Made by a program: the position numbers and the translations under genes
In this document: positions 9,462 to 59,375 of the stretch, in pieces
Numbering within the stretch: position 1 is the stretch's first letter
Layout: the number at the start of each line of letters is the position of its first letter
Notes under the pieces: model-generated
The model's database searches: none
What the model was told of the DNA's origin: nothing
Seen by the model: only the letters and a program-made list of their open reading frames with translations
IMG/VR virus record: IMGVR_UViG_3300017780_004980
Coordinates: 33,767-97,766 of that record
DNA: 64,000 bases
Reading direction: 5' to 3' (one strand)
Origin: a virus

Positions 9462-12400
9462 TTACGCCCCGTTGAACGGGCGGTTGTTCACGCCGCCATT
9501 CATCTTGGCCCGGATGAGAGCCTCGTTCACCCGCTTATCCACCATATCCCCGATGGCGGAAACCAACTTCTTCATGGTGCGCTGGTCGACCTCCTCGTTC
9601 CCAGACGACTGGAACGGGATGGTGACCGGCATGTCGATGCTGACCTGGTAGGTGTCTCCGCCGGTAGAGCCAGCCAGGCCGCGCCCTTGCGTGGCGCCGT
9701 AGCCAATGCTCTCCGTCGCGCCCCCGGCCATCGGGCGGCCAGCGAGGGATTGCGCCGTCAGGTAACTGTCCGGCTCAGGCATCTGCCATTGCTTGGCGGC
9801 CTGGGTCATGGCCGTGATCGCCGAGGTCAGGGCGCTGACGTCGATGTTTGCAACCACTTGCAAAGTCTGAGCATTCTGCTGCGCCTGGATCGACATGACC
9901 CCGAGCTTGCCGTCCTTGGTGCGAACCAACGGCATGACCGCCTCGGGACCGGCCTCACCCATCACCCCCTGCTTGGTGCGCCCGCCCTTATTGAAGGCGA
10001 ACGGGGTCGCCTGGTTGACGACGGAGTTGGCGAAGGCCGAGCCCTTGGCGAAGGCCGTGATCCCGCCATCGAAGCTACCGCCGTTGCGGTACCCCGTCCG
10101 GGGGGACGACCCGGCCTTATTGGCCGCGTTGGAGAACTGCGCGCCGCCGACGATCAGCTGGCTGGAGCCGGGCGAGATCGCCTCCATCGCGTAGAGCACC
10201 GCCTGCATGGCCAGGGCCTGCACGATCATGGCGGCGACGCTGGCGGCGAGGTTGGCGACCATCTCCCCCCAGCCCACCTCCTGACCCATGAAGAACTGCT
10301 TGGCGGCCTGCCCCACGCTGTCGAACGCTTGCGTCCAGCCGTCCCGGAAGATGGTCAGGGCGGTGGTGTCGGCGGCCTGCGCCGTCAGCTGCGCCATCAA
10401 GGCGTCCCAGGTCGCCAGGTTTGACGTGTCGGCGGTGAACTCGCCACGAGCCAGCTGGGCCGCCTTGAGCCCTTCAGCAGCCGCCAGGGCCTTGTCCTTG
10501 GTCTGGCCTAGAACCTCGTTGTACGTGCGGATGTAGGCCGTCTGGGCTGCGATCTCACGGGCGTCGGTCGAGCGGATGCGTCCGAGCTGCTCAAGGACCG
10601 TGATGTTGTCCTGCTGGGCCTTCTGGCCTTCCCGCAGCTTGGTCAGGTAGTCCTGATCGAACCTTTGGCCGGCGGCCCGGGCCGCGTTCGTCGCGCGGAT
10701 GGCAGCCAGGCGCTTACCCTCAGCGGAGCTATCCTGATCGAGGGCGGCCCGCTCGGCATCGAGATAGGCAATCCGCATCGCCCGGCTACGGGCGTCGAGG
10801 TCCGCAGCAGCGATGTACTGCTGCATGTATCGGGTCGCCGTCTCGTAGGCCCGGCCCTCCTCCAGAACGGAGGTCGTGACGCCCGTATCGAAGGCGGAGG
10901 CGGCCTTCTTCTTGGCGTTCTCGATGGCGGTTTCGGTCTGGGTCGCCGACAGGTATCGCTTCTTGGCATCGGTCTGGGCGTTGATGGCTGCCGTCTGGAT
11001 CGCGCGGGTGCGCGCGTCCGACAAGGCCAGCTGTCCCAGCGCCTTGTTGGCTTCGATGTCCAGGCCGACAGCCCGGGTCTGCGCCTCTATCTCGGAGGTG
11101 TACTTGGTCTCGACCGCCAAAGCGACCTTCTGGCTGTCCGTCAGGGCGGTCTTGGCCGCGAGGGCCGCCTTGGCCGCTTCGAGCTGCTTCTCGTAGTTAC
11201 CCAGAGCCGCCTGAGACGTGTCGATCCCGGCCTGCTCGGCGGACGTCAGGTATTCCTGCGCCTCGGCCGACTGGCGGTAGGCGAGGGCCTGCTGCCGCAG
11301 CTGGTCGAGGACCTGCTTCAGCTTGTCGACGCTCTCCTTGGCCGACTTGCGGTCCGCCCCGCCCGTGTCACCGCCCTCCAGGTTCGGCATGGGCGGCATG
11401 GTGATGGGCTTGCTGAGATCGGCCACCAGCTTGGCGATCCGGTCGTACTCCTCCTTCTCCTTCTTCTGCGCTTCCTGGAGGACCTTGACCCGGGCCTGCG
11501 CTTTGGCTTCCCGCGCACCCATGGCGGCGGCCTGAGCAGCCGGGGCCTCCGCGTTGAGCCCCTTGCTCATGACTTCGTTATTACGCGCGGCGACGACGGC
11601 CAGGTGGGCCCGCGCTTCACCCAACAGGATACCGGTATGCTGGTACGCCATGTTGGCTTCGATGCGCTTCGCTTCGGCGTTCGCAATCGCAGCCTTCCGG
11701 TCCTCGCCGGTGGCCTGGGCCGCAATCATGGCGGCGTCAGCGTAATTCTTCAGCGCGGTGTCGGCGACGCCGGTCACACCGGCGAGCTCCTGGGTGGCCG
11801 ACGTAGTGTAGCGGGTGCTGTCCGCCGTGTAGATGGCCACGGCGGCAAGGGTGCCAAGACCGACAATCAGGGCCCCGACGCCGGTGCTGATCATGGCGAG
11901 CTTGAAGGCGTGGGCCGCAGCCGAGCTGATACCGAAGCCGGTAGCCACCAGCAACAGCTGGGATTGCATGAAGGTCAGGCCCGCCGACATGGCACCGATG
12001 ACGGCCGTGGTCGCCGAGAAGATGGCTCCTCGGTTCATGACCAGCCACAAGGCGACGAAGGCGGTGGTCACCCCGCCGAGCACGGCCTTTAGGATCGCCA
12101 ATCGGTTGGCGGCCTCCTGGGTCGGGGCCATGAAGTAGTTCCAGGCCTCGATCATCGAGCGGATGCCTGCGATGATGACGGGCATGACGGCGGTGCCGAA
12201 CTCGATCATCGTCAAGCGCAGCAGCTGCATACCCTGATCGAGCGACAGGACGCCGCTGTCCGCTGCGATCTTGAAGGCGTCCCGTAGGTCCTTGGCCGAG
12301 GCAACGGCGACCTTGCCGAAGGTTTCCGTGGCCTTGCCCAGGTTCTGCATGATGATCTGGATCGCGCCGAAGCCTTCGGCGTCGTCGATCACCTTCCGCA

Positions 12401-13280
12401 GGTTCACGTCGTCCAGCTTCTCGCGCAGGGCCGTGACACCCGCCAGGAAGCCCTTGTCCCGGAAAATGTCCTGGAAGTATTTCATATCCAGGTTGAGGTC
12501 TTTCAACGTCTTCCGGGCTTGGGTGGTCGGGGCGACGACCTTGTACATGATCTGGCGCAGCGCCGTGATGGCTTCGCCCGCCGAGGAGCCGGTCTGCGAC
12601 AGGAAGGCCGCGCCGGCGGAGACTTCCTTGAATTCGACCCCCAGCGCCGACGAGACGCCCAGGACCCGGCCGACGGAGATCGAGAATTCCCGCGCCTCCA
12701 TCTTACCTTCGCGGACCGCCGCGATCATGGTGCCGGTGGCCTCGGCCGCCGTAATGTTCGAGGTCCGGTAGGCGTTCAGCGCCGAGGTGACGGCGTTGGC
12801 CACGTCCTTGGTATCACCCAGGCCGACGATGGCGCCCTTCGACGCCGCGTCCATGACTTCCATGGTCCGGCTGACGTCGATACCCGACGAGGCGACGTAT
12901 TGCAGGGCGGTAGCGAGTTCCCGGGGGTCCTTACCCGTGGTCAGGGACAAGCCCTTGAGCTCCGCACCCCACTTCTTCACCTGCTCGGCGTTGGCGCCGG
13001 CGAGGGTCTGCGACTGGACCAGGGCCTTGTTGTACTCGTTGGTCAGGACCAACGACTGGCGGATGGTCGCCGCCGCCGACAGGGCCCCGAAGGCCCCGGC
13101 CAGTCCGCGCACCATGGTGGTGGCGGCAGACGTGGCGGCAGCGAGACCCCGGGCCTGGATTTGAGCCTCCGCCGCCCCGCGCGCCAGGCCCCGCATGTCG
13201 AGACCGGCAGCACGAAGGGCTGCGGAGGCCTCGTCCCGGACCCGCAGGATGAACAGCATCTCCTGAGAAAGCGTGCTCAT
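9462..13280 (-). CDS. Tail tape measure protein
   Basis: 1272 aa, Ala-rich and helical; TP901-type core (ELATALQYVASSG), C-terminal FAKG..GVMGEAGPEAVMPL motif; follows the chaperone genes. Confidence 0.95.
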   Translation of the reverse strand: MSTLSQEMLFILRVRDEASAALRAAGLDMRGLARGAAEAQIQARGLAAATSAATTMVRGLAGAFGALSAAATIRQSLVLTNEYNKALVQSQTLAGANAEQVKKWGAELKGLSLTTGKDPRELATALQYVASSGIDVSRTMEVMDAASKGAIVGLGDTKDVANAVTSALNAYRTSNITAAEATGTMIAAVREGKMEAREFSISVGRVLGVSSALGVEFKEVSAGAAFLSQTGSSAGEAITALRQIMYKVVAPTTQARKTLKDLNLDMKYFQDIFRDKGFLAGVTALREKLDDVNLRKVIDDAEGFGAIQIIMQNLGKATETFGKVAVASAKDLRDAFKIAADSGVLSLDQGMQLLRLTMIEFGTAVMPVIIAGIRSMIEAWNYFMAPTQEAANRLAILKAVLGGVTTAFVALWLVMNRGAIFSATTAVIGAMSAGLTFMQSQLLLVATGFGISSAAAHAFKLAMISTGVGALIVGLGTLAAVAIYTADSTRYTTSATQELAGVTGVADTALKNYADAAMIAAQATGEDRKAAIANAEAKRIEANMAYQHTGILLGEARAHLAVVAARNNEVMSKGLNAEAPAAQAAAMGAREAKAQARVKVLQEAQKKEKEEYDRIAKLVADLSKPITMPPMPNLEGGDTGGADRKSAKESVDKLKQVLDQLRQQALAYRQSAEAQEYLTSAEQAGIDTSQAALGNYEKQLEAAKAALAAKTALTDSQKVALAVETKYTSEIEAQTRAVGLDIEANKALGQLALSDARTRAIQTAAINAQTDAKKRYLSATQTETAIENAKKKAASAFDTGVTTSVLEEGRAYETATRYMQQYIAAADLDARSRAMRIAYLDAERAALDQDSSAEGKRLAAIRATNAARAAGQRFDQDYLTKLREGQKAQQDNITVLEQLGRIRSTDAREIAAQTAYIRTYNEVLGQTKDKALAAAEGLKAAQLARGEFTADTSNLATWDALMAQLTAQAADTTALTIFRDGWTQAFDSVGQAAKQFFMGQEVGWGEMVANLAASVAAMIVQALAMQAVLYAMEAISPGSSQLIVGGAQFSNAANKAGSSPRTGYRNGGSFDGGITAFAKGSAFANSVVNQATPFAFNKGGRTKQGVMGEAGPEAVMPLVRTKDGKLGVMSIQAQQNAQTLQVVANIDVSALTSAITAMTQAAKQWQMPEPDSYLTAQSLAGRPMAGGATESIGYGATQGRGLAGSTGGDTYQVSIDMPVTIPFQSSGNEEVDQRTMKKLVSAIGDMVDKRVNEALIRAKMNGGVNNRPFNGA
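9849..9862 (-). repeat. 14-bp dispersed motif TGCAAGTGGTTGCA (copy 1, inside tape measure)
   Basis: Exact match. Confidence 0.9.
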
Positions 13281-13283
13281 AGC

Positions 13284-14336: not shown

Positions 14337-14344
14337 GAGTCACC

Positions 14345-16672: not shown

Positions 16673-17149
16673 TCAGCTCCTTCCGATGGTTGGGTCGTCT
16701 TCGCGGTGGAAATACAGGACGTCGAAATACAGAGCCGCGTCAACCTGGTTGTCATACGGTCCGTCGATGTTGGTCTGTTCCCCCGTCACCTCGATGTTCA
16801 CGACGAGACCACCCAGCGTGCTGTTGGCCTTCAGGACGGTCTCGGCGACGGCCAGCATGCGCTCCAGCGCCTTGGTCTTGCCCCCGCTGTCCGTGCTGTA
16901 GAAGTAGACCTCCAGGGTGCAGGGCAGCAGGACCCGCTGGAAGGACGTGGTGGCCGCGCGGGCCGCAGTGCCGCCGTAGACCCCCAGCGCCGTCTTCTTG
17001 CCCTTGGGTAGCTGGTCGAGGGCATCCCTGGACGTGACCGACCATTCCAGCCCGTAGTCGGTCAGGAACTGCTCCGCCGCCGGCGTGCCCTTCTGGGGGA
17101 ATAGAGCGAGGATCGCGTCGAGCACCTGGCTCCGCATGGCATCAGACAC
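16673..17149 (-). CDS. Putative tail terminator protein
   Basis: 158 aa; N.TLGGLV and FDVLYFH..DP pattern; position after the neck genes. Confidence 0.65.
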   Translation of the reverse strand: MSDAMRSQVLDAILALFPQKGTPAAEQFLTDYGLEWSVTSRDALDQLPKGKKTALGVYGGTAARAATTSFQRVLLPCTLEVYFYSTDSGGKTKALERMLAVAETVLKANSTLGGLVVNIEVTGEQTNIDGPYDNQVDAALYFDVLYFHREDDPTIGRS

Positions 17150-17774
17150 GAGACATCTCCCCCATCAAATTCTTGGCCGTCTTCTCGATGAACCGTTCGA
17201 GGCTGGCTGTGGCCACCGCCTGGCGAAGGCCGAGGCGCGGCTTGATCCTGATACTTTCCAGCAGCAGGTACAAGGGCACGATCCGCCGACCCCTCTTCTG
17301 GAAGATCAGCAGGTTCCCCTTCCGGCTCCGGCCGACGAAGGTGTTCAACCATTGGCGGGCGTGCAGGTACTTCGGAGTGCCGTCCGGGTTCTTGGCTGCC
17401 TTCAACGGCATGGTCAGGTACTTGCCCGTCCTCGGCTTCAGGACACCCCCGGTCTCATGGATGACGAGATGAGGGGCCACCAGGAAGGCCGCCACGGTAG
17501 CCCCAAGGGCTCCACCCGTGACGACGACGCCCTTCTCTATGCTGCGTACGCCCTCGCCGGTACGGGAGGCCAACGAGGTCTCCGTGGTGGTACTGCCGCT
17601 ATGTCGGGCGGCGACCTGTTTTGCAACCACTTGCAAATGGGCCCGGAGCTCCTGCTGGAACTGGGGCGTGGTGCGCGCGACCGACGTGGTCCAGCTGTTG
17701 GCCACGGTGTTCAGGCCCTGCGAGACGTCCGCGAATTCCTTGCCGCCTATGGCCAGCCGGAAGTCGAAGTCCAT
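17142..17774 (-). CDS. Putative neck / tail completion protein
   Basis: LASRTG, IHETGGVLKP...YLTMPL, IKPRLGL motifs; position. Confidence 0.65.
   Translation of the reverse strand: MDFDFRLAIGGKEFADVSQGLNTVANSWTTSVARTTPQFQQELRAHLQVVAKQVAARHSGSTTTETSLASRTGEGVRSIEKGVVVTGGALGATVAAFLVAPHLVIHETGGVLKPRTGKYLTMPLKAAKNPDGTPKYLHARQWLNTFVGRSRKGNLLIFQKRGRRIVPLYLLLESIRIKPRLGLRQAVATASLERFIEKTAKNLMGEMSRV
17622..17635 (-). repeat. 14-bp motif (copy 2, inside neck gene)
   Basis: Exact match. Confidence 0.9.
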
Positions 17775-21933: not shown

Positions 21934-21947
21934 TGCAAGTGGTTGCA
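21934..21947 (+). repeat. 14-bp motif (copy 3, portal/protease junction)
   Basis: Exact match. Confidence 0.9.
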
Positions 21948-23567: not shown

Positions 23568-23581
23568 TGCAAGTGGTTGCA
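23568..23581 (+). repeat. 14-bp motif (copy 4, polA/portal junction)
   Basis: Exact match. Confidence 0.9.
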
Positions 23582-29581: not shown

Positions 29582-29615
29582 CTCGCATCCTCCATGATGC
29601 CTTAGAGATACTCGT

Positions 29616-29643
29616 ACTTTAGCTCTGGGGGCCGACGGGTCAA
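29616..29643 (-). promoter_or_regulatory. Sigma70-type promoter
   Basis: TTGACC-N16-TAAAGT (GCTAAAGT). Confidence 0.65.
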
Positions 29644-29668
29644 ACTTGAAGGCGCCGGCCCCCGGCTT

Positions 29669-30163: not shown

Positions 30164-30186
30164 TTGACCCTCCTTGGTCTTTCTCT

Positions 30187-30214
30187 ACGGTAACTCTGGT
30201 GCAAGTGGTTGCAA
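30187..30214 (-). promoter_or_regulatory. Sigma70-type promoter whose -35 overlaps the 14-bp repeat
   Basis: TTGCAA-N16-TACCGT; TGCAACCACTTGCA covers the -35 box and part of the spacer. Confidence 0.55.
30200..30213 (+). repeat. 14-bp motif (copy 5, overlapping a promoter)
   Basis: Exact match. Confidence 0.9.
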
Positions 30215-30217
30215 ACT

Positions 30218-30857: not shown

Positions 30858-30905
30858 TATGCGATCCTCATGATCTTGTGGCTGTGCGTCGGTCGAGCCA
30901 CCATA

Positions 30906-32999: not shown

Positions 33000-33023
33000 C
33001 TGATCCTCCATGATCATACGATT

Positions 33024-34132: not shown

Positions 34133-34146
34133 TGCAAGTGGTTGCA
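34133..34146 (+). repeat. 14-bp motif (copy 6, intergenic)
   Basis: Exact match. Confidence 0.9.
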
Positions 34147-40333: not shown

Positions 40334-40769
40334 GTGCTCCCGCCCACGTACGCCCGAGTAACAGCTTGCTTACTGTCGCCTGGGTCACCCCATATTCCTC
40401 GGCTAGGTCAGCTTGCCTGATCTTTCCAGGAACGTAGGCCTCTTGTATGGCCAAAACGGCGGCATCCGTCAATTTGCTATTCCCTGCGGCGGCTCCTCTG
40501 GCCGTTCTTCCGCGCACCTGTCGGTCGTCTATGTTTTGCTGATGCGTCCCGTATAGGAGATGAGCGGGGTTCACGCAGCGCGGCTGGTCGCAGGTGTGCC
40601 GAACTTCCTGATCCGGCGGGCACGACCCATGAGCCAGTTCGCAAACGTACCGATGGACGTACATCTGCCGGCCTTTAACTTTGACAAAGCCGTAGACCTC
40701 ACCGGCTCCTGTGAAAATCCAGCAGTCTCCCGCCGGGAACACCTTGTCCATGATCCGATCTGGGATCAC
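40326..40769 (-). CDS. HNH homing endonuclease with C-terminal HTH
   Basis: CWIFTG, HR...VRHTCDQPRCVNPAHL..GT...N, QADLAEEYGVTQATVS. Confidence 0.92.
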   Translation of the reverse strand: MIPDRIMDKVFPAGDCWIFTGAGEVYGFVKVKGRQMYVHRYVCELAHGSCPPDQEVRHTCDQPRCVNPAHLLYGTHQQNIDDRQVRGRTARGAAAGNSKLTDAAVLAIQEAYVPGKIRQADLAEEYGVTQATVSKLLLGRTWAGAHG

Positions 40770-41713
40770 AGGCCCTCCACCTTCTTCAAATTGTCCAAAG
40801 TCGGGGCGACCAGCATGTCCTTGGGCATTTTCACCAGCGGCGTGTTGTCAAACGCGGCTTGCACCAAGGCAGGCTGCTCGCCCTTGGCGATCTCCTGAAT
40901 GACGTACCCAATGACGGCGTCCATGGAGCGGTTCTGCTCGATGCAGGCTTGCCCGATCAAGGTGAGCGCGTCCCACGATTTCTTGTCCGCCAGCCTGAGC
41001 CAGATCGACTGCTGCCCGCCATAGTCCATGATGAGGTACCCATAGGGTAGCGTGTCCCCGTACATCGTGAACATATGGTTCAGTAGCTTGGCCAGGCCGT
41101 CGACCGTCTTGATCTCGGCCGCCGCCTCGCGGAACGTCTGCTGCAAGTCCTTCGGCAAGGTCTTGGCCGACTGCTCGATCAGCTTCTTGAACTCCGCCTC
41201 GTCGGCGAAGCCGAACATATCCTGGATGACGTCTTCGCCGTAGCCCTTGGTCAGGTACTTCTCGTACAGGCCGAAGAACCGCTGCGGGTCCAGCCGGCCC
41301 TTGATGGCGTTGTGCCGCATCAGCTGCACTTCCGCCTCCTCCTCGTTGAAGGCCGGGTCGACGATCACCGTGCAGGGAATGTCCAGTTCTTCGTTGAACT
41401 TGGCGGCTTCGGTACGGTGGTGGCCCCCGATGATGCGGAAGACGACGCCCTCGCCCTGCAAGGCGGCGTAGAAGGCGGCGAGGCTCTCGTCGGTGGGCTC
41501 GGCCCCCAACAGCTTCTTGTGAGCGTCCCAGACCTTCCTGAACAGCTTCAGATCGAACGGCCAGACGAGGACGGCGTCGGTGTGGCCGACCCGCTGCCGG
41601 TTCTCCACCAAGAGATCGAACTCCCGGTCGGTCATCTTGTTCGGGTTGTTCTCGGACGGGATCAGCAGCTTGATCGGCAGCTTGGTCCGCACCGGCTCGT
41701 AGGATTTCGCCAA
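40766..41713 (-). CDS. ParB/sulfiredoxin-like N-terminal domain protein
   Basis: L.PSENNPNKM, RIIGGHHR..AA, HNAIKG motifs; TTG start. Confidence 0.85.
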   Translation of the reverse strand: MAKSYEPVRTKLPIKLLIPSENNPNKMTDREFDLLVENRQRVGHTDAVLVWPFDLKLFRKVWDAHKKLLGAEPTDESLAAFYAALQGEGVVFRIIGGHHRTEAAKFNEELDIPCTVIVDPAFNEEEAEVQLMRHNAIKGRLDPQRFFGLYEKYLTKGYGEDVIQDMFGFADEAEFKKLIEQSAKTLPKDLQQTFREAAAEIKTVDGLAKLLNHMFTMYGDTLPYGYLIMDYGGQQSIWLRLADKKSWDALTLIGQACIEQNRSMDAVIGYVIQEIAKGEQPALVQAAFDNTPLVKMPKDMLVAPTLDNLKKVEGL

Positions 41714-41727
41714 AGCCCCCTCCTTGG

Positions 41728-43212: not shown

Positions 43213-43856
43213 GCTTGGGTCGCCCGGAGCAAGAGGAAGCGTTCAGCGTGGGTTCGGTTGACTTGCATCCCCCGCATACGGGTGTGGACTTCGGCGCCTT
43301 TGATCGAAATCAGGCCGGTCGCCAGGTCCAGCCGTTGGGTGGCGTGCAGCATAAGGGCCGCGCCCTTCCGTTCGATATCGGGTTCGATCAGGGCCTCGTA
43401 GCGCCAGCCGAATTCCTGGGGCGGGTGCTGTCCGGGCATCTCGTAGGCCCATAGGTCCGGGCCCTCGGCACGGCGTGCAACCACTTGCAATGCGTCCCAG
43501 AGCGCCGTGTGGTCCTGATTGAACCAGGGCAGGCAGACGTAGACGGCGCTCGGCGCGTGTTGCAACAGCAGGCCGTCGATCCAGTCGGCGACTTCGCTCC
43601 TCGGCACCAGGTCCAGCTTGTTCTCGGCGTCGAACGGCCGCCAGTGCCAGTGCGCTCCCAGCACATGACAAGCGGCCATCTGATCCAGTTCACGGTCTTC
43701 CGGAGAGACCACCAGACCATCCCGGTTTTCGTACTTCGAGGCGCAGGCGACGGCGATGACCACCTCCTGTTTCCTCCGGTGGCACCACTTGGCGATAGTA
43801 CCCCCCATAGCCAGTTCGGCGTCGTCGGCATGGGGGGACAGGACGAGGATGGTCAC
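43209..43856 (-). CDS. PIG-L/LmbE-family N-acetyl-sugar deacetylase
   Basis: LSPHADDAELAMGG, R..D, NQDH, H.TQ, AERF; GTG start overlaps the upstream stop. Confidence 0.9.
   Translation of the reverse strand: MTILVLSPHADDAELAMGGTIAKWCHRRKQEVVIAVACASKYENRDGLVVSPEDRELDQMAACHVLGAHWHWRPFDAENKLDLVPRSEVADWIDGLLLQHAPSAVYVCLPWFNQDHTALWDALQVVARRAEGPDLWAYEMPGQHPPQEFGWRYEALIEPDIERKGAALMLHATQRLDLATGLISIKGAEVHTRMRGMQVNRTHAERFLLLRATQA
43476..43489 (-). repeat. 14-bp motif (copy 7, inside PIG-L gene)
   Basis: Exact match. Confidence 0.9.
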
Positions 43857-45159: not shown

Positions 45160-46231
45160 GGTAGTCTCCAGTGTAGGTCGGAACCAGTTCCTTCAAGAGC
45201 CGCAGCGCGGCCTCCCGGTGTCGGAGCGGCACCGCGACCTTGAGCTTGAGCAGGGTCTGCGACAACTCCGGGTCCAGCTGGATCGTGCCGGCCATTACGC
45301 CGGGGATCACCGTGGACGGCTTCGGGGCCTCGTCCGGGTAGAACAGCTCCTCGGACAGCTTTTCGCCCGGTCGGATGCCTATCTCCTTGATGCAGATATC
45401 GACGCCCGGCTCCTTGTCGGCCAGCTTGATCAGCATGGTCGCCAGGTCGATGATCCTGATCGGCTCGCCCATATCCAGGACGAACAGGGATCGGGGCTCG
45501 TAGTCCAGCGACAAGGACCCCAGGACGAGGGTGACCGCGTCGGTCAGCGTCATCATGTAGCGGGTCATGGCGTGGTGGGTGATCGTCACCGGGCCGCCGG
45601 CCGCGATCTGCTCACGGAACAGGGGGACGGCCGACCCCGCCGAGTTCACGACATTGCCGAAGCGCACCACGGAATACTGGGTCGCCGGGTACAGCCGGCT
45701 GTCGCTGTAATGGGCGGTGATCAGTTCGGCCGCGCGCTTGGTCAATCCCAGGATCGAAGACGGGTTCACCGCCTTGTCGGTCGAAATCACCACCACCTTC
45801 TCGGCCTTGTGGTAGCCCGCACAGGCCAGGACATTGTCGGTCCCGTCGATGTTCGTGGTCATCGCCTCCATGACGTTGTGCGCGATCTCCAGCATCGGGA
45901 CGTGCTTGAGCGCCGCTGCGTGCAGGACGATGTGCGGCTGGTATGCCGTGAAGACCTCGTCCAGCGCCTCGTAGTTCCGGATATCGCACAGGATCGTCGT
46001 GCCTCGGCCGTGCAGGGCCTTATGGGCGTGGTACAGACCGACTTCCGAGTGATCGACGAGGATCAGCTTGGCCAGCGAGTGCTCCAGGCGTTTGGCCAGG
46101 GCCCCGCCGATGGAACCGCCGGCGCCCGTGATCATCACCGTCTTGTTGTCGAATTGGGCCAGGTCCAGAGCAATGCTGGACCGGTCGAGCAGGAGGTGGC
46201 CTAGAGCCGCTCCGCGATCAGCTGAAACCAT
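45152..46231 (-). CDS. UDP-GlcNAc 4,6-dehydratase (PglF/CapD/WbpM catalytic domain, SDR); start approximate
   Basis: TGAGGSIG, HAAALKHVP, ISTDKAVNP, TKR, VRFGNV, MTRY, RPGEKL.EEL. Confidence 0.92.
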   Translation of the reverse strand: MVSADRGAALGHLLLDRSSIALDLAQFDNKTVMITGAGGSIGGALAKRLEHSLAKLILVDHSEVGLYHAHKALHGRGTTILCDIRNYEALDEVFTAYQPHIVLHAAALKHVPMLEIAHNVMEAMTTNIDGTDNVLACAGYHKAEKVVVISTDKAVNPSSILGLTKRAAELITAHYSDSRLYPATQYSVVRFGNVVNSAGSAVPLFREQIAAGGPVTITHHAMTRYMMTLTDAVTLVLGSLSLDYEPRSLFVLDMGEPIRIIDLATMLIKLADKEPGVDICIKEIGIRPGEKLSEELFYPDEAPKPSTVIPGVMAGTIQLDPELSQTLLKLKVAVPLRHREAALRLLKELVPTYTGDYRV

Positions 46232-46836
46232 TGGCGAGTATTGTCCCCCAGGAACGAATAGGCCTTTCGGCCGACATAGGTGATGACGATGTTGCGGAAG
46301 CCGGCGGCGTAAACCAGGTCGTGCAGCTGCGTCTCCGACCACATCTGGCGGATCGTTGGATCGCCCTTGTACCCGGAAAGCAGGTTGTCGAGGGCGAGCC
46401 ATTTGTCGTGACGAGGGTTGGCCACCAGCATGCCCAGCTTCCCGCCAGGTTGCAGGGTGTCGCGCATCGACTTGAGTAGCTCCGCCGGATACGCCGTGTG
46501 GGGCAGAGTATGGATGCAGACGACGTGCCCGACGTTTCTCTCTTTGATCGTGACGCCGTCGAAGGCGCATAGCTGTCGGTGCGGGGCCTTCTCCAAGCCC
46601 AGCTGGATGGCCTCCGGGTTGTAATCGACACCATGATACCGAGCCGCCGGGTTGAAGGCCCGCAGCACGTCGTGCAGGGCGCCCTGATTGCAGCCAACGT
46701 CGAGGACTTTCGGACTGCCGGCGATCTTCATGGTCTGGAACAGAGCGGTGGCGGTCCTCCACCATTGACCGCTCGTTGACCACTCGTCGACGGCCTTCGA
46801 ATAGTCCTTCAGATCGCCTTGTTTATGGTCTCGCAT
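46201..46836 (-). CDS. Class I SAM-dependent methyltransferase; start uncertain
   Basis: VLDVGCNQG, GVDYN, HTLPH, LQPGGKL. Confidence 0.88.
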   Translation of the reverse strand: MRDHKQGDLKDYSKAVDEWSTSGQWWRTATALFQTMKIAGSPKVLDVGCNQGALHDVLRAFNPAARYHGVDYNPEAIQLGLEKAPHRQLCAFDGVTIKERNVGHVVCIHTLPHTAYPAELLKSMRDTLQPGGKLGMLVANPRHDKWLALDNLLSGYKGDPTIRQMWSETQLHDLVYAAGFRNIVITYVGRKAYSFLGDNTRQWFQLIAERL

Positions 46837-47867
46837 ATCCTGTCGACCTCCATGTCGGTGAGCCCGGGGTAAATCGGCAGGGACAGCATACAGCCCGATG
46901 CGCGGGTTGCAACCGGCGTGTCCCAGCCGCTGAGAATGTGCGGCTGAAGGGCCGTCAGGTCGGTCAGCAGCGGGTAGTGCTTGGACACCCGGATACCGGC
47001 CGCCCAGAGCGCCGCGACCACCCTGGACCGCATGGTCGTGTCAAGAAACTCGACCACCATCATCGTCAGGCTATGCCCCGCGTGGGGGGCCTGAATAGCT
47101 GCTCCCTGAAGGGCAAGCCCTCGGCTGTACCTATTTCTGATGGCCAGCCTCTGGGTCTTGAACCCGTCCAGCTTCTTCAGCTGCTCCAAACCCATCGCGG
47201 CGGCGATGTCCGTCATGTTCGCCTTGTTGCCCAGCATCTCGACATCGTAGTCCAGCACCGGGCCGGCGGCTTGATCCCGTCCGTGCGCGTCCATGCTGAT
47301 CCCGTGCAGGCGAGACTGGCGAGCGTAGGCCGCGAGATCATCGTCCTGGGTCATCAGGGCGCCGCCCTCGCCGGTGGTCATACCCTTGTTGGCGTAGAAC
47401 GATGTGACCGCGTGATTTCGGTGCCGCCGGGGTCCGTGGTAGCAGGCGCTGTCGTACAGGGCGAAATTGCTGACTCCTTCGACAGGGCGGCCGGCGTAGT
47501 CGGTCGGAACCGAGAAGACGTAGTCCGAACTCGATCCGATGACCATGTTATAGTTGTTCGGGTCCACGTCCTTGATCAGGATTTTGCCCCCGCGCTTGGC
47601 CCACTGGATCGCCAAGGACGAGAAGGTCAGGTTCGGAAAAGCGATGGCCCAGAGATGCGGGTCCCGGGCCTTCGCCCAGTCAAAGAAGATGGCGCCGGCC
47701 ATGGTCGCCGAGTTCGTGGCGATGACGTGCTTCCACCCCCACCGCTTCTCAAGGGCTTGCTCGAACTCCCGCACGACAGGCCCGTTGGTCAGCCAGCCTG
47801 ACTTCAGGACCCGGGCAACGGCTTCCGCCTCTTCGATGCCGACGGACGGCTTGGAGATCGGGATCAT
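46809..47867 (-). CDS. DegT/DnrJ/EryC1/StrS PLP-dependent nucleotide-sugar aminotransferase
   Basis: SGWLTNGP, NSATMA, DSAC, SFYANKGMTTGEGG (PLP Lys), LSLPIYP. Confidence 0.93.
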   Translation of the reverse strand: MIPISKPSVGIEEAEAVARVLKSGWLTNGPVVREFEQALEKRWGWKHVIATNSATMAGAIFFDWAKARDPHLWAIAFPNLTFSSLAIQWAKRGGKILIKDVDPNNYNMVIGSSSDYVFSVPTDYAGRPVEGVSNFALYDSACYHGPRRHRNHAVTSFYANKGMTTGEGGALMTQDDDLAAYARQSRLHGISMDAHGRDQAAGPVLDYDVEMLGNKANMTDIAAAMGLEQLKKLDGFKTQRLAIRNRYSRGLALQGAAIQAPHAGHSLTMMVVEFLDTTMRSRVVAALWAAGIRVSKHYPLLTDLTALQPHILSGWDTPVATRASGCMLSLPIYPGLTDMEVDRICETINKAI

Positions 47868-48239
47868 CTAGTCCTCCTTGACGTACGCAATATCGAATTT
47901 GACCCTGACCGACGACCCGTCCTTGAGGTACGCCAAGGTCGACTTGAACAAGCCAAGCACGTTGTTCTGGCCCGCCGGCGGGGGGCTGCGCAGGGCCTCC
48001 AGCATTTTCGGCGCCAATCGGGACGCCAGCAGGCCGGGCCGCACGGCAATCTCGGGCTCCCATTCCAGGACGAATGTGAAGGTCTCGGCCGCCAGGAGCA
48101 GGTCGGCGCCGTGCGTGCTCAGACGGGGCACTTTGCGCAGCGGGGTGTGCATAGGCACCAGCCGCCAGTCCGCGAACTGCGGGCTTGCGGTAATGGTGCG
48201 CAGGAACCCGGACCATTCAATTTCTGTCAGCTTTCTCAC
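47868..48239 (-). CDS. Hypothetical protein
   Basis: 123 aa, coupled to neighbours. Confidence 0.6.
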   Translation of the reverse strand: MRKLTEIEWSGFLRTITASPQFADWRLVPMHTPLRKVPRLSTHGADLLLAAETFTFVLEWEPEIAVRPGLLASRLAPKMLEALRSPPPAGQNNVLGLFKSTLAYLKDGSSVRVKFDIAYVKED

Positions 48240-49504
48240 AGGCTCAGTACCTTCTTGCGGGCCTTGATCAGCTGTCGAAGGTCCCGCGCCACGTCATGGA
48301 TCAGGCCGGTGACCTGGTCCGGTTCAAGCTGGTAGTTGTCGAAGAAATACTGGTTCCGGAAGCCCTTGAAGGCCGCGTCGGAGTTGTCGTAGTGCAGGCG
48401 TGGTCCGAGCAGGCCGACCTCCGCGTAGAAAAGGGCCTCCTTGACCGCGCCGGTGAAGGTTGCAAGTGGTTGCAAGGCGTGCTCCGCCATGGCCGGCGAG
48501 GCCTTGAGCCAGTAACCGATGGCCTTGCGCCCGTAGTGGGTATGCTGGTCAACCGCAGCGGCCAGCAGGAAGTCCGCGTTGGCGCCCAGATGCACGAAGG
48601 CCGCGATCTCGTCCGGGTTCCCGGGGATCATGGTCGGGTGGTACGGATCGAGGTCCGCCGAGGCTTTAGTGGCCTGGCACAGGCGCTCCCACACCAACGG
48701 CACCGGGACGTTCAGGCCGTAGCCGGTCGCCGTCCGCGTCCAGTGGAACAGGTAGCTGATCAAGCCCGGCATCCGCATCACCTCGATCAGGGTCTCGCGG
48801 TGCTCGGCGGTCAGGCCGTCCGTGTACTTTTTGCCCTCGATGATCAGCTCGCGGGGGTAGAAGTTCCATAGCAGGCCCATCCGCTCGTTGAACGGGTTGC
48901 CGTCGTCGGCGATCCTGCTGATGATCTCCACCGGGTCCCGGCCGATGCTGGCCTCGTAGACCTGCTGGATCGGGTTGCCGTCGGCCAGCGAGCTCACGAA
49001 GGGGTCCGTCAAGTCCCGCGACTTCGGCATGTCGGGCCGGCACATCTGCGTCAGGAGCCACGACAGCAGTTTCGGGCCCAGCTTGTTCCGGGTGGTCTTC
49101 GACCGGGTGGCGTAGACGGCGATGGCCGTCAGGTAGGGGTCGCCGAAAGCAATGTCCTCGGCGGCGATGACCGACAGCCGGGTCCACATCTTGTCCTCGA
49201 ACTCGTGCTCGATCAGCCAGTTGGCCGACCGCCAGGCCTGCTTGAAGTTGCCGCGCCGGATGGCCTTCTGCATGTTCGAGGTGTGCAGCCAGCGGTCACC
49301 GAAAGACGGAATGTTCGTCGTCAGGGTGTGTTCGTGGTGCGCCAGGTCCGCCTTGATGAACTCGTACAAGCCCTGCTCGACCTCGGCGGCAGACGCCGGC
49401 CGCAGGTGGTAGTCGAAGGTCAGCCCGTGGTCGTGGGCCCGCTGCACCGTGTCGAGAAACAGGAAATCATGCACCTGATCGGCGGGATACTGGCTTTGGT
49501 ACAT
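48236..49504 (-). CDS. Protein with MgsA/RarA C-terminal-like helical domain, no ATPase
   Basis: SNMQKAIRRG...W.RL.VIAAEDI..GDP resembles the RarA SAxxKSxRGS..RRL...ASEDIG.ADP segment; no Walker A. Confidence 0.55.
   Translation of the reverse strand: MYQSQYPADQVHDFLFLDTVQRAHDHGLTFDYHLRPASAAEVEQGLYEFIKADLAHHEHTLTTNIPSFGDRWLHTSNMQKAIRRGNFKQAWRSANWLIEHEFEDKMWTRLSVIAAEDIAFGDPYLTAIAVYATRSKTTRNKLGPKLLSWLLTQMCRPDMPKSRDLTDPFVSSLADGNPIQQVYEASIGRDPVEIISRIADDGNPFNERMGLLWNFYPRELIIEGKKYTDGLTAEHRETLIEVMRMPGLISYLFHWTRTATGYGLNVPVPLVWERLCQATKASADLDPYHPTMIPGNPDEIAAFVHLGANADFLLAAAVDQHTHYGRKAIGYWLKASPAMAEHALQPLATFTGAVKEALFYAEVGLLGPRLHYDNSDAAFKGFRNQYFFDNYQLEPDQVTGLIHDVARDLRQLIKARKKVLSL
48461..48474 (+). repeat. 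14-bp motif (copy 8, inside 422-aa gene)
   Basis: Exact match. Confidence 0.9.
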
Positions 49505-50343: not shown

Positions 50344-50415
50344 TTTGTCATCGAGGTATCGAACCCCGAACCGACGGATTATGAATCCGTAGCTCTACCA
50401 TTGAGCTAATGACAG
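50344..50415 (-). tRNA. tRNA with CAT anticodon (Met, or Ile2), C1:A72 mismatch, no encoded CCA
   Basis: CTGTCAT TA GCTC AATGGTA GAGC T ACGGA TTCATAA TCCGT CGGTT CGGGG TTCGATA CCTCG ATGACAA A folds as a full cloverleaf. Confidence 0.85.
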
Positions 50416-51637: not shown

Positions 51638-52240
51638 TCAGAAGGGAATTTGATCGTCTTCGTCTTGGTCCGTGCTCATGGAGTGCTCCATAGGCGGGTC
51701 GAACCGGTCGTTGTTGAAGTTCGTCCAGGCGTGCGGCCCGTACAGCCTCAGCACCGCTTCGTCGTAGGCCAAGGCCGCCTCAATCGGCGAGTCGTAGTAG
51801 CCAATGTGCTGGTACTGGCCATCGAATTTCAGCTTGGCCCGCCAGCGATGCCCCCGCTTGTCTACGCCTCGGAAGCCGGCCGCGCTGATCCGAAACTTGG
51901 CGTTCATATTCTGGGCGTTCGACCCGAAGCCACATACCCGCAGGTTCTTCCGCCTGTTGTTCAGGCCGCAGAAATCCCAGTGATCCACCACGCCGGCTGT
52001 ACGAGCCTGGGCCACCATCCGGTGCATGTAGAGCTTCTTGCGGGTCCCGGGCTCCTGTGAGGCTGCGTAGCAGGTGTTTCTGCCGAACTGGACCCGCCAG
52101 CTGTACTTCGAGACCAGCGGGTAGTCGGCCTCGTCGATGATCGCTTCGTAGCCGCGCGTCAGGAATATCAGGCGCTCACCCTTCTTGGGCTCGAAGCGCA
52201 CAGGCTCAAAGCGGCTCTCTTCGATTGCAAGTGGTTGCAT
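51638..52240 (-). CDS. HNH endonuclease with AP2 DNA-binding domain
   Basis: AIIDEADY, MHR, VDH...GLNNRRKNLR, FRGV...WRA....HIGYY.....AALAYD. Confidence 0.92.
   Translation of the reverse strand: MQPLAIEESRFEPVRFEPKKGERLIFLTRGYEAIIDEADYPLVSKYSWRVQFGRNTCYAASQEPGTRKKLYMHRMVAQARTAGVVDHWDFCGLNNRRKNLRVCGFGSNAQNMNAKFRISAAGFRGVDKRGHRWRAKLKFDGQYQHIGYYDSPIEAALAYDEAVLRLYGPHAWTNFNNDRFDPPMEHSMSTDQDEDDQIPF
52226..52239 (+). repeat. 14-bp motif (copy 9, at the HNH-AP2 start codon)
   Basis: Exact match. Confidence 0.9.
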
Positions 52241-52759: not shown

Positions 52760-52763
52760 TCTT

Positions 52764-53616: not shown

Positions 53617-53642
53617 GCGGGTGATCCTCCTTGATCTACACA

Positions 53643-53978
53643 TTAGGGTAGGCTCTGGGGGGCTGGTGACAAGGGGTTTTGCAGCCGGGCTACCATCTCA
53701 GACAGGATCAAGTAATCCCGGACGTACCGAGGCTCCCGCTCCAGCTTCTTGGCCAGGGATAGGGTGCCCGCGCAGACCGTTGTATGGTCTCGACCACCTG
53801 ACAGCCTCCCTATAGAGGGCGTCGACAGGTCGGTGTATTCCCGCGCCAGCCGCCACACCATCTGTCGAGCCAGGATGATGTGCCCGAACCGGCGATCACC
53901 ATCTATGTCCTCGACAGGCACGCCGTAATACCCGGACACGGCTTTCTTTATGGCTGCGAACGACACCCTCGTAGTCAT
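53643..53978 (-). CDS. Stand-alone DnaA C-terminal (domain IV) HTH DNA-binding protein
   Basis: I...VSGYYGV...DI...RR......ARQMVW.LARE.T.LS.PSIGR..GGRDHTTV. Confidence 0.9.
   Translation of the reverse strand: MTTRVSFAAIKKAVSGYYGVPVEDIDGDRRFGHIILARQMVWRLAREYTDLSTPSIGRLSGGRDHTTVCAGTLSLAKKLEREPRYVRDYLILSEMVARLQNPLSPAPQSLP
53645..53672 (-). promoter_or_regulatory. Sigma70-type promoter
   Basis: TTGTCA-N16-TACCCT. Confidence 0.55.
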
Positions 53979-54066: not shown

Positions 54067-54873
54067 TCAGGTCGCGCTACTGCCGATAGCCGTCATAAAG
54101 GCGACATAGGCGTTCCACAGGGCGGTATGCTCCGCGTCGGAGATCGCCTGGCCGACGAAGCCGAGGGCCACCTGCTTGGACGTCAGGTTCGTCCCGTCCG
54201 ACGTCAAGATCAGGAAGTTGGCATTGGTCGGAGCTGTTGAGGTCTGGCCTACCGACGCCTGGGCCACGCCGTTCTTCTGGGGCGTGTACGAGCCAGCCGC
54301 AGACCGGCTCATACCATACAGGCCTTTCCCCGTGTTGGCGGAAACAATGACGTTCACCGTCGTCGACCCGCCGTACATGATCCAGTCCCCACCCGTCGCC
54401 CGGCGCGGCATGGTCCGCATGTTGGCGACGCCACCCAGCGCCTTGACGTTGTTGCTGTCCGCCGCGTCCGTGAGTGTGGCGAATCCGTACGAGACGTCGT
54501 CCTGGGCGAGTTTCCTGCCGGCGGCCGTGGACGGGTTGAACCCGCTATCCAGGTACGACGACGCCGCACTGGTCCAGCCCCCGTCTGCCGTGAAAGTCGG
54601 GGTGTTGACCTTGGTGAGGTCGTACGTGCCGGGGTTGACGAGGTTGATCCGGGTGGCCGCGTCGGCGTGACCCACCAGCAGATACAGCAGGTCCATCTTT
54701 GTCCAGCCACCGGCGGTGAAGACACTGTCGATGAACGTGCGAAGATGGCCTTCCCGGGTCGCGTCGGGGGATACTCCCAGCGCCGACATTCTATCCAGCA
54801 CCGCCGTTTGAGCCGGCATGGAGCCGGTCGCGCGGCGGCTCAAAATCAATCGTCGCCGGCGGGTCGGGTCCAT
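54067..54873 (-). CDS. Putative virion accessory protein (lectin-like beta-sandwich)
   Basis: Start MDPTRRRRLI; W.KMDLLY, INL.NPG, YLDSGFNPST pattern; coupled to the upstream fibre-like gene. Confidence 0.55.
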   Translation of the reverse strand: MDPTRRRRLILSRRATGSMPAQTAVLDRMSALGVSPDATREGHLRTFIDSVFTAGGWTKMDLLYLLVGHADAATRINLVNPGTYDLTKVNTPTFTADGGWTSAASSYLDSGFNPSTAAGRKLAQDDVSYGFATLTDAADSNNVKALGGVANMRTMPRRATGGDWIMYGGSTTVNVIVSANTGKGLYGMSRSAAGSYTPQKNGVAQASVGQTSTAPTNANFLILTSDGTNLTSKQVALGFVGQAISDAEHTALWNAYVAFMTAIGSSAT

Positions 54874-56405
54874 CAGTTGTTGTCCGCCGTCACCTTCAGC
54901 GTCCAGTCCGACGTGGTGCCGGGCGTAAACGCACCACGGGTCAGGATCAGGATGAACAGGTCGGTGCCGGCCTGCCCTTGGAACGGAATGCGGCACTCCA
55001 CCGCGCCGACCGTCTTGGTTCCTCCGAGGGGGCGCCAGGTGTCAATCCGGGCATGGCCAAGAATGTTGGCTTCGTCCCCCGCCGACAGAGTCAGAGCCCC
55101 GTTGTCGGTGTAGGTGCCGCTGGCCGGCGTGGCCTTGAACAGGATGATATCGAGCGCCTGCGCCACCGCCGTCTTCGAAACAATGTCGATGTACGTGATG
55201 TAGCCGCTCTTGGCCGTAGCCCGGGCGATGGCCGACAGGGTGATGATGCCGCCGACCACGTCGTCCGCCGCGTAGGCCGAGGTCGAGATCGTCGGGGTCA
55301 CCGACACGGTGATCATGCTGCCCGCGACTTCGCCGATATGCCCTTCGTTGGCGTCGATGGCGCCGATCCGCGTATGCAGACGACCGACGCTGTCGTAAAT
55401 CGCCAGGGTGTAGTCCCCGTCCGTGCCGGCCAAAGACGCCGCCGTGTCCTTGCGGACCCCGAGGGCGCCAATTCCGGAGTCCCCCGACCCATGCGCCGCA
55501 TCTTCCGCGTACTGGGTGACCGCGCTGGAGCCGGACCCGCCGACAGGAGCCACCGCCGCAGGCGCCAGGGTCCGCCCGGTGCTCAGGGTCACGGCGATTT
55601 CGTCGATATCCAGGCAGGCGATCCGGGAGATCACCACGTTGGTGTTCGTGGCCGGCGTAGAACCATTCTTGAAGTGCAGTTGCAGCTTGTACAGTCGGCC
55701 AGGGTGCGGGACCTGCGAGCTCAGGCGGAGAGCCGTGGCCGTGGGGGCGGTGACCACGTCCTTGGCCTGTGCGTGGTAGAAGACGTCCTGCGGCCGGACA
55801 ACCATGGCGTACTCACCACCAGTGGTCAGGCTCTGCGAGGCGGTCGTGTTGACGGCTAGGACCGAGCTGTCTTCAGAGATCGTCTCCAGTTCCGCACGGG
55901 CCGCCGTGGTCGTGTTCCCGAAATACATGCTGGCCCGGTTCTTGTAGTCTCCGGACAGGCTCGCGTGGGCCACGGCAGCCAGCGTGGTGGCGTCGACTTC
56001 GATCAGGCTGATCCGGACCTGGTTCGCGGCCAGGCGCTGCGACAGCGACAGGATGGCTCGGATATCGGTCGGGATCGTGAAGGTCTCGACGGACCGAAGG
56101 ATCAGCTCGGCGCCATTGGTCGTGCCCATACCCACCGTCAGGGTGCTGGCACTGACCGTCTTGGTCATACCCCCCGTGTCGGTGATCGTCTCCCACAGGG
56201 TCGCGTCAATGGCGGAGCCTGAGAAGCAGTCCGTGAAGGTCTTCTTGGTCGTCGACACCCCAAGGCGGGGCTGACCATCAGCACCAAGGACCTCCGAGTC
56301 GGACGCCGCGTACTGGGCGTAGATATCCGTCTCGCCGGCCACCACCCGCATGCCGAATTTCTTCGACACACCGTTGCGGTCCTGTCCCGTGTAGAAGTCG
56401 GTCAT
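54873..56405 (-). CDS. Putative virion fibre/decoration protein
   Basis: 510 aa, Thr/Ser/Ala beta-rich; YAEDAAH.SGD.G..ALGVR.D and AYAADDVVGG segments typical of phage structural proteins. Confidence 0.55.
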   Translation of the reverse strand: MTDFYTGQDRNGVSKKFGMRVVAGETDIYAQYAASDSEVLGADGQPRLGVSTTKKTFTDCFSGSAIDATLWETITDTGGMTKTVSASTLTVGMGTTNGAELILRSVETFTIPTDIRAILSLSQRLAANQVRISLIEVDATTLAAVAHASLSGDYKNRASMYFGNTTTAARAELETISEDSSVLAVNTTASQSLTTGGEYAMVVRPQDVFYHAQAKDVVTAPTATALRLSSQVPHPGRLYKLQLHFKNGSTPATNTNVVISRIACLDIDEIAVTLSTGRTLAPAAVAPVGGSGSSAVTQYAEDAAHGSGDSGIGALGVRKDTAASLAGTDGDYTLAIYDSVGRLHTRIGAIDANEGHIGEVAGSMITVSVTPTISTSAYAADDVVGGIITLSAIARATAKSGYITYIDIVSKTAVAQALDIILFKATPASGTYTDNGALTLSAGDEANILGHARIDTWRPLGGTKTVGAVECRIPFQGQAGTDLFILILTRGAFTPGTTSDWTLKVTADNN

Positions 56406-56493
56406 GCGTGCCCCCGTAGCGATCCATGCTGGATTACCACGTTTTCCTGGGGACGCGACGGTTCAGATGAGGGTCATGCCCAGAAAACTGGAT

Positions 56494-56507
56494 TGCAACC
56501 ACTTGCA
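56494..56507 (-). repeat. 14-bp motif (copy 10, intergenic)
   Basis: Exact match. Confidence 0.9.
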
Positions 56508-58865: not shown

Positions 58866-58890
58866 TCTGACCCTCCTTGGTCTTCGTCTT

Positions 58891-58918
58891 ACGGTAGGGG
58901 TTATACCCCCTGCTTCAA
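58891..58918 (-). promoter_or_regulatory. Sigma70-type promoter
   Basis: TTGAAG-N16-TACCGT. Confidence 0.5.
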
Positions 58919-59320
58919 GTAGTTTTTCTTGCGCTCGACGATCTTCCAGTATTCCCGGAGGCACTCGACCATAGCCGGCCGGTCGTCCTTCAGGATCGCC
59001 GTGACCACGTCGACGGACGCCTGGGCGACCTGCTTCCAGCGGTGGAACCAGATCACGTACGACAGGTCGTAGGTGTGCTTGGCGAGCTCGTCCCGGAGCG
59101 CCTGAATGTCTCCCAGCTGGCCCTTGTTGAGCAGGGCGTCCGCGAGCGGCGGCATGTCGAATAGCGCCTTGGTTTTCGGCTTGGCGAGCTCCCAGGGCGT
59201 CCCGCCGAGGTCGGCGGCGGTAACCTTGTCCTCCCCCGGCTCCTTGTCGCCGATGACCAGGCGTTTCGGCGCAGGCTTAGGCGGGGGCGGCGGAGTGCGG
59301 TTCGTGATGTTCAGCGGCAT
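58901..59320 (-). CDS. Hypothetical protein
   Basis: 139 aa, Pro-rich N-terminus. Confidence 0.65.
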   Translation of the reverse strand: MPLNITNRTPPPPPKPAPKRLVIGDKEPGEDKVTAADLGGTPWELAKPKTKALFDMPPLADALLNKGQLGDIQALRDELAKHTYDLSYVIWFHRWKQVAQASVDVVTAILKDDRPAMVECLREYWKIVERKKNYLKQGV

Positions 59321-59361
59321 CGGGGCTCTCGTTGTTGGGGCCTGCCCGGATTAGCAGGCCC

Positions 59362-59375
59362 TGCAAGTGGTTGCA
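59362..59375 (+). repeat. 14-bp motif (copy 11, intergenic)
   Basis: Exact match. Confidence 0.9.

Follow-up and report, generated by a model that had tools for sequence, protein, structure and literature searches.

A near-palindromic 14-mer dispersed through a phage genome is the local version of a family-wide site and probably binds a phage-encoded protein

The DNA analyzed here, a stretch of 64,000 nucleotides that we call the window, comprises bases 33767-97766 of the 97,766-bp phage record IMGVR_UViG_3300017780_004980 of IMG/VR, which has a 123-bp terminal repeat. According to a codon-usage gene caller, the minus strand carries all of the real genes. The window contains 11 exact copies of the near-palindrome TGCAAGTGGTTGCA, seven on the plus strand and four on the minus strand. 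All of them were recovered where a first-pass annotation, made from the letters alone, had located them, and its view that such a set is not a product of chance was borne out by shuffled windows, which gave 0.00 copies. Scanning the window with up to two mismatches revealed no extra copies. The array extends beyond the window. The full-genome scan that the first-pass annotation had proposed recovered 21 exact copies and three copies of the variant TGCAAGTGCTTGCA against a chance expectation of ~0, and a script scan added one further copy, TGCAATTGCTTGCA. Thus, the phage carries one exact 14-letter near-palindrome per ~4 kb. The GTGG core had been described as invariant. This holds among the 21 exact copies, whereas three copies read GTGC. 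In 16 copies the match extends outward to TTGCAA-N4-TTGCAA. Since all real genes lie on the minus strand, the usual coding-strand reading is TGCAACCACTTGCA, i.e. TGCA-AC-CA-CT-TGCA. This main form breaks the inner symmetry (C...C), while a minor form, TGCAAG-CA-CTTGCA, is symmetric. The copies are AT-richer than the genome, as had been claimed (50% G+C in the motif compared to 63% in the genome).

The copies are strongly enriched between genes (Table 1). Eighteen of the 25 sites with exact arms are intergenic in a genome that is only 8.8% non-coding (P 3e-14). Intergenic copies show an orientation ratio of 16:2 and intragenic copies one of 2:4, and many lie 0-10 nt past a stop codon, just ahead of the next ribosome-binding site. 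Upstream of the window, ten sites are crowded into 13 kb of small genes. Within the window, four copies lie deep in genes (at 9849, 17622, 43476, and 48461), where they specify LQVVA three times and LQPLA once. The remaining seven are all intergenic, five of them located 0-10 nt after a stop codon, in agreement with the placement at gene junctions reported before. A copy said to cover a start codon fits loosely, ending 5 nt before the ATG (copy at 23568), and a copy said to cover a -35 box was not confirmed in the window, where the five promoter-like sites located at 48-64 kb all lie clear of the copies. The site upstream of the protease gene is present also in the related phages DLP3, Summit, RcZahn, SIO-2, and TM16, and TM16 has a site at the same junction as the copy at 30200.

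Table 1. Copies of the 14-mer in the window and two genes discussed as possible readers (window coordinates).
Feature	Position	Strand	Context
Motif copy	9849..9862	-	In 1272-aa gene 9462-13280, annotated as tape measure from size and synteny; coding strand GTGG; encodes LQVVA
Motif copy	17622..17635	-	Inside gene 17142-17774; encodes LQVVA
Motif copy	21934..21947	+	Intergenic; 10 nt after portal stop, 21 nt before protease start
Motif copy	23568..23581	+	Intergenic; occupies most of the 26-nt polA/portal gap
Motif copy	30200..30213	+	Intergenic; 4 nt after stop of gene 30218-30580, 36 nt before phosphatase gene
Motif copy	34133..34146	+	Intergenic; stop codon 1 nt before, next start codon 11 nt on
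Motif copy	43476..43489	-	Inside PIG-L deacetylase gene 43209-43856
Motif copy	48461..48474	+	Inside gene 48236-49504; encodes LQPLA
Motif copy	52226..52239	+	Intergenic; abuts stop of cold-shock-domain gene, 24 nt before HNH/AP2 gene
Motif copy	56494..56507	-	Intergenic, minority orientation; 88 nt upstream of gene 54873-56405
Motif copy	59362..59375	+	Intergenic; 41 nt upstream of gene 58901-59320
ParB-like protein	40766..41713	-	N-terminal domain and helix-turn-helix (HTH); predicted ParB/KorB/Noc-type fold; GGHHR motif
Small DnaA domain IV HTH protein	53643..53978	-	Bac_DnaA_C, E 1.8e-19

A megablast of 20 kb against GenBank phages returned one 57-bp match only, and a single-protein scan of IMG/VR with TerL found nothing. 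TerL searches identified distant relatives at 41-49% identity, namely the Stenotrophomonas phages DLP3, DLP5, and Summit, the Rhizobium phages TM16 and Y1_11, the Rhodobacter phage RcZahn and the Vibrio SIO-2 group. Three blocks of synteny are shared: sugar genes followed in order by those for a glycosyltransferase, the ParB-like protein, the putative small terminase and TerL; a PPDK-like protein with two phosphatases, a 385-aa unknown protein and PolA; and the portal, protease and capsid genes. A version of the motif was seen in every relative tested (DLP3, Summit, TM16, Y1_11, RcZahn, and the Vibrio phages KarBoss and SIO-2) and in many IMG/VR contigs. In DLP3 a k-mer count gave 24 copies of TGCAATCAATTGCA. 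The pattern TGCAANNNNTTGCA occurs 31 times in Summit, 31 times in DLP3, 17 times in TM16, 15 times in Y1_11 and nine times in RcZahn, with a reversed-pattern control at 0, and KarBoss and SIO-2 each contain 25 sites within one mismatch of TGCAATYRATTGCA, where shuffles gave 0. Other versions in IMG/VR and genome loci read TGCAGT-YR-ACTGCA, TGCACTTAAGTGCA, CGCAAT-YR-ATTGCG and TGCACC-YR-GGTGCA. The general form is TGCA-x-y-[YR]-y'-x'-TGCA with lineage-specific inner bases. The outer TGCA hardly varies, some lineages showing a mismatch or a change in an outer base, and the center is a pyrimidine-purine (YR) step in nearly all of them, TM16 with AT or AA being the exception. The CCAC core is unique to the present genome among those compared. 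An exact 14-mer scan of IMG/VR gave, among the matches listed, single chance matches only. The exact motif strings had no match in the ~8.4 million papers and preprints searched, and the DLP3 paper holds no description of the motif (PMC7326821).

The scan of relatives and of a bacterial genome, which the first-pass annotation had also suggested, further linked the motif to phages. In the 4.8-Mb genome of Roseococcus pinisoli XZZS9, 19 of 20 matches fall within one 95-kb stretch, and the sole match outside has one mismatch. This stretch (G001:C6:58287-153032, ~95 kb of a 668-kb contig) contains 19 sites of the G+C-rich form TGCACC-YR-GGTGCA together with homologs of the ParB-like protein and of phrog_17202, a protein discussed below. 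Judged by this content, it looks like an integrated prophage of the same phage family. Because the matches are confined to it, the motif belongs to the phage and not to the host, and a host transcription-factor site was rejected.

Comparison of DLP3 and Summit shows how strictly the sites are maintained. All 33 alignable sites are kept (33/33), with 98.1% identity at motif positions compared to 82.1% in the flanking 150 nt. Core changes are few and stay within the set TCAA, TTGA, TTAA, and TCGA, including one full flip from TTGA to TCAA. The majority of sites are intragenic in both phages, and reverse-oriented copies are equally conserved. Site positions are conserved among relatives with 40-50% protein identity, and some are shared by distant lineages. 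The coding sequence bends to the motif. In gene 17142-17774 the phage encodes LQVVA where the orthologs of TM16 and RcZahn have LTNVV and LTSVA, and at one set of codons in the ParB-like gene DLP3 and Summit have VQSIA whereas TM16 has LQQIA, each fitting the core of its lineage. The consensus of the ParB-like family at this position is QLIA, which is encodable by TGCAATTGATTGCA. As judged from these alignments, the motif is under strong purifying selection as double-stranded DNA, in both orientations.

The sites are also spaced more evenly than expected. Gap lengths have a coefficient of variation (CV) of 0.44-0.70, compared to ~0.95 for random placement. It is lowest in DLP3, Summit and the complete relative G003 (0.44-0.45, P below 0.0002), followed by SIO-2 (0.56, P 0.002) and by TM16, KarBoss and the present genome (0.66-0.70, P 0.03-0.05). 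In RcZahn the value depends on the site definition (0.61 with P 0.013, or 0.79 with P 0.15). Enrichment between genes gave P values of 5e-4 to 3e-14. The orientation bias of intergenic copies recurs in DLP3 (9:0) and TM16 (12:4), but it is not universal, since the ratio of CA to TG centers is 16:15 in G003 and the KarBoss center is a symmetric TA. A stoperator-like role, one of the proposals of the first-pass annotation, would thus fit the intergenic 16:2 ratio of this genome and is not family-wide.

Some copies may have a regulatory role. In the first 13 kb of the genome, five copies, read by eye, have TTGACC or TTGCAx 7-8 nt downstream and yAnnGT a further 16 nt on. A consensus promoter scan confirmed one of these five promoter-linked copies and none at the window copies, and its promoter counts were not above chance. 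The early copies near -35-like boxes would probably act as operators as well. Most of the small early proteins have no family match; a 225-aa protein of this region (genome 7167-7844, minus strand) contains a GmrSD_N (DUF262) domain. We rejected the motif as a phage-specific promoter, because junction copies lie 5-24 nt from start codons without a conserved -10 element at constant spacing, and the proteins scanned included no phage RNA polymerase. Sigma-54 promoters, FNR/CRP boxes and sites for IHF, Fis or DnaA were set aside on the spacing or sequence known for them.

Taken together, the array is best read as a set of evenly spaced protein-binding sites with an operator role at some early promoters. 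We infer, and consider it reasonably probable, that the 14-mer represents, in this phage, a near-palindromic double-stranded site shared by the whole family, which a phage-encoded protein binds as a symmetric dimer. Retention of both orientations argues for a double-stranded site read by such a dimer. Such sites recur every ~3-4 kb in a large family of tailed phages with genomes of 80-120 kb. A conserved protein surface would read the outer TGCA arms, the inner bases would be set by the lineage, and the central pyrimidine-purine step would probably serve as a flexible hinge. Copies are placed in short intergenic gaps where these are available and are otherwise written into coding sequence, which suggests that selection favors regularly spaced sites over the full length of the chromosome. 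The early subset that ends 7-8 nt upstream of, or overlaps, sigma-70-like -35 boxes would probably function as operators too. The first-pass annotation had likewise read the motif as a genome-wide binding site for a phage protein. The relatives, the confinement to a prophage-like stretch and the signs of selection support this part, while the readers it named do not fare well.

The most obvious of these readers is the ParB-like protein, which could act as a nucleotide-dependent clamp that is loaded at every site and spreads over the genome in the manner of loading at parS or OB, perhaps recruiting glycosylation enzymes or the terminase. Its AlphaFold2 (AF2) model, built on a 56-sequence alignment, has a predicted local distance difference test (pLDDT) value of 89. 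Structural comparison (VIA) places its N-terminal domain close to those of Noc, ParB, KorB and PadC, with Z 12-13 and a root-mean-square deviation of 1.4-1.7 A, and residues 6-219, including the HTH, match the KorB-KorA-DNA, Noc and ParB-parS structures over 145 aligned residues (Z 11-12). The ParB/KorB/Noc-type fold of the model is therefore taken as genuine. The gene adjoins glycosyltransferase and terminase genes in five lineages, the size and symmetry of the motif resemble parS, OB and NBS sites, and a conserved site lies within the ParB-like gene of DLP3, Summit, TM16 and the loci L214 and L215. The present phage, whose closest ParB-like relatives share 59% identity, has no site in or near this gene. 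In the family alignment, the GERRxR arginine patch of CTP-binding ParB proteins is replaced by an invariant GGHHR. No ParA partner was found in the complete genome with PF13614 or PF01656, although controls matched in 14 of 14 genomes, and neither a KorA nor an IncC partner was found. The distribution also speaks against this reader. As a genome scan with PF02195 missed known members, a family-specific profile with positive controls was used. It detected no homolog in complete SIO-2 (25 sites), G003 (35) and G005 (31), while the controls DLP3 and KarBoss were detected; the same profile, before the controls were run, found none in complete G002 and G004. Array sizes in these complete genomes lacking the protein (SIO-2, G002-G005) range from 8 to 35 sites. 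Because complete relatives keep full arrays without it, a role of the ParB-like protein as reader is improbable, and loading of this kind is an unlikely explanation of the array. SIO-2 lacks both the ParB-like protein and the glycosyltransferase/sugar block (window counterpart 40766-47867). The protein thus tracks this module rather than the array, which hints that it might serve glycosylation.

The remaining alternatives account for single aspects of the pattern. Targets of a site-specific enzyme, with the YR step as the scissile position for T5-like programmed nicks or for cleavage or strand exchange in recombination-dependent replication, would suit the extreme exactness, the conserved center and the regular spacing, and RecA, two resolvase-like proteins, an exonuclease and PolA are common to all array genomes, besides several HNH nucleases in this one. 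We nevertheless regard this as quite unlikely. A nuclease or recombinase of the required specificity was not identified, a tyrosine integrase was not found in this genome, the fixed phasing with promoters suits a binding protein better, and the sites occur in both orientations, unlike the nick sets known from phages, which are confined to one strand. The orientation of the intergenic copies and their position between a stop codon and the next ribosome-binding site would also be expected of a small mRNA hairpin between cistrons that controls processing, stability or translation. The predicted hairpin reaches only -3.6 kcal/mol and is no better in context than shuffled sequence (z-scores not significant). 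It lacks a U-tract and Rfam gave no match for it, so that a terminator or structured RNA was rejected. Equal conservation of reverse copies, the balanced orientations of G003 and the intragenic position of most DLP3 sites make any signal at the RNA level highly improbable. The idea that the CCAC core evolved as an addition in this lineage, so that the small DnaA-domain-IV protein also reads the sites (TTGCAACCACTTGCAA), draws on a clear Bac_DnaA_C match, on the resemblance of core and flank (AACCACT) to the CCACA part of the DnaA box, and on the fact that neither the protein nor the CCAC core occurs in any other genome of the comparison. Only 5-6 of nine positions match the DnaA box and the co-occurrence is a single one, so we judge it very unlikely. 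Finally, identical copies at gene junctions could be selfish or neutral miniature palindromic elements without phage function. REP- or MITE-like mobile palindromes would be expected to shift position among relatives and to go with a transposase, whereas DLP3 and Summit have all 33 alignable sites in common. Conservation of positions across distant relatives and at 98% against 82% in the flanks, the residues imposed on proteins and the even spacing leave this explanation with hardly any credibility.

If the sites are bound by a phage-encoded protein, as we favor, the reader should occur wherever the array does. The other two proteins named by the first-pass annotation do not suit this role. The DnaA-domain-IV protein has no homolog in six compared array-bearing genomes and cannot be the family-wide reader, even if it might be related to the CCAC core. 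The putative small terminase (207 aa, encoded upstream of TerL) shows no detectable similarity to the proteins in the same position in the relatives and is thus too divergent to read an invariant outer TGCA. All seven fully compared array genomes have 20 proteins in common, most of them assigned to replication, recombination, the capsid or the PPDK/phosphatase block. Among those with no assigned function, the phrog_17202 protein is the best remaining candidate, which we offer as a lead and not as a finding. This 418-aa protein is encoded on the minus strand at genome 11414-12670, 21 kb before the window, and its DLP3 ortholog at 46848-47657. All complete relatives (11 of 11) have it, even those that lack a ParB-like protein, and sites just ahead of its gene occur in six of the eight reference genomes and in 13 of 20 additional loci, where chance would give about one locus in nine. 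The protein has a conserved core, FxLGGxL...YRKAxYLxxIY...GWTKLKEL, and several orthologs carry a lysine/alanine/proline-rich tail like that of histone H1. Helix residues vary with the motif type (Q or W in TGCAAC lineages, L in most TGCAAT lineages), a correlation confounded by relatedness. One tentative and rather doubtful extension is that the array forms the nucleation grid of a hitherto unrecognized chromosome-organizing system in 80-120 kb phages of alpha- and gamma-proteobacteria. In this model phrog_17202, perhaps through a ParB-HTH-like domain without the clamp domain and often with a lysine/alanine-rich tail, would bind the sites and autoregulate its gene. By marking or coating the chromosome it would also define it as "self", in the service of silencing, protection, modification or packaging.

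Several observations weigh against the reading of the array as protein-binding sites. The even spacing is marginal in the present genome (P 0.047), because ten sites crowd the early region. A purely symmetric reader does not explain the 16:2 skew of the intergenic copies. The copies are exact and none is degenerate in this genome, which is odd for operators and would suit an enzyme target too. Gene calls came from a heuristic caller written for this analysis. With regard to phrog_17202, the site upstream of the protease gene is as conserved as its own. The protein has no sequence match to a DNA-binding family or to the PDB, hhalign detected no similarity to the ParB-like family, and its core in a low-confidence Atlas model reaches a TM-score of only 0.50-0.55 to DUF3102, HTH_ParB and DUF1016_N.

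The window also contains a candidate DNA-modification system. At 27682-33017 it encodes a PPDK-like dikinase, two Cys-phosphatase-like proteins and the 385-aa phrog_20946 protein, and this block is conserved in every array-bearing genome compared (DLP3, TM16, RcZahn, SIO-2, KarBoss, G003). DLP3 DNA resists 15 restriction enzymes (PMC7326821), which together with the conserved block suggests a function in modification. Among the other features, three HNH endonuclease genes lie on the minus strand (40326-40769, 51638-52201, and 60258-60638), one of which carries an AP2 domain and another of which, with HNH_3 plus HTH_3, is interposed between the ParB-like gene and the putative small terminase. 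A single tRNA gene (50344-50415, minus strand; RF00005, 59.5 bits) was the only Rfam match. In a whole-genome k-mer table we also observed recurrent words near ribosome-binding sites, TCATGGAGGA (11 times), ATCA[C/T]GGAGGAT (ten times) and GACCAAGGAGGGTC (four times), which put the Shine-Dalgarno sequence inside short inverted repeats.

An exact word that recurs at regular intervals and is kept across distant phages points to a process acting on the whole chromosome that is absent from current phage annotation, for instance its organization, silencing, processing or marking as self. Since DLP3, DLP5, Summit, RcZahn and the Vibrio SIO-2 group make this a family with members that can be cultured and are considered for therapy, the reader could be found by ordinary pull-down or chromatin immunoprecipitation. 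A tempting assignment is corrected here, as the neighboring ParB-like protein is not needed for the array. In addition, the motif provides a compact signature for spotting members and prophages of this phage family. It also calls for caution in genome engineering, where synonymous recoding may destroy functional DNA sites.

Dispersed operator sites are known from several replicons. Plasmid RK2 carries 12 copies of OB, a 13-bp palindrome, over a replicon of 60 kb. At OB, the IncP-1 protein KorB of this plasmid acts as a ParB-family clamp-repressor on promoters near and far (McLean et al., 2025, PMC11790492). The phage array differs in that it does not require the ParB-family protein of these phages, with no KorA or ParA/IncC partner found, and in that many sites are intragenic and tile the genome regularly. 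Phage P1, which has a genome of ~94 kb and lysogenizes as a plasmid, contains many dispersed copies of one operator, the asymmetric 17-mers bound by C1 at promoters. In contrast to the sites described here, the P1 operators are neither evenly spaced nor embedded in coding sequence. In Cluster A mycobacteriophages, a monomeric immunity repressor (L5 gp71) binds asymmetric 13-mers termed stoperators. These resemble the present array as dozens of near-identical sites in short intergenic gaps that are oriented with transcription and differ between related phages. However, the phage site is a near-palindrome, some relatives have no orientation bias and no repressor has been identified. Furthermore, members of the SIO-2 group, described as lytic (PMC10835289), keep the array. 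DLP3, which was sequenced on PacBio, is temperate, and its relative DLP5 was isolated as a phagemid (PMC7326821).

Cluster O mycobacteriophages contain an unexplained 17-bp repeat, TGTTCGG-NNN-CCGAACA (Cresawn et al., 2015, PMC4351075). As described there, more than 30 copies with invariant inverted arms and a variable center are distributed between and inside genes across a ~70-kb genome, and methyltransferase and glycosyltransferase genes lie near the terminase. The array described here follows this type of dispersed palindrome in pattern, not in sequence or ancestry. Phages, hosts and sequence are unrelated, and the Cluster O authors saw no meaningful orientation. Even spacing, family-wide variants and positional conservation are not reported in the passages of PMC4351075 consulted. 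We conclude that the Cluster O palindrome is the closest published parallel to the array, whereas KorB and its OB sites are the closest mechanistic one.

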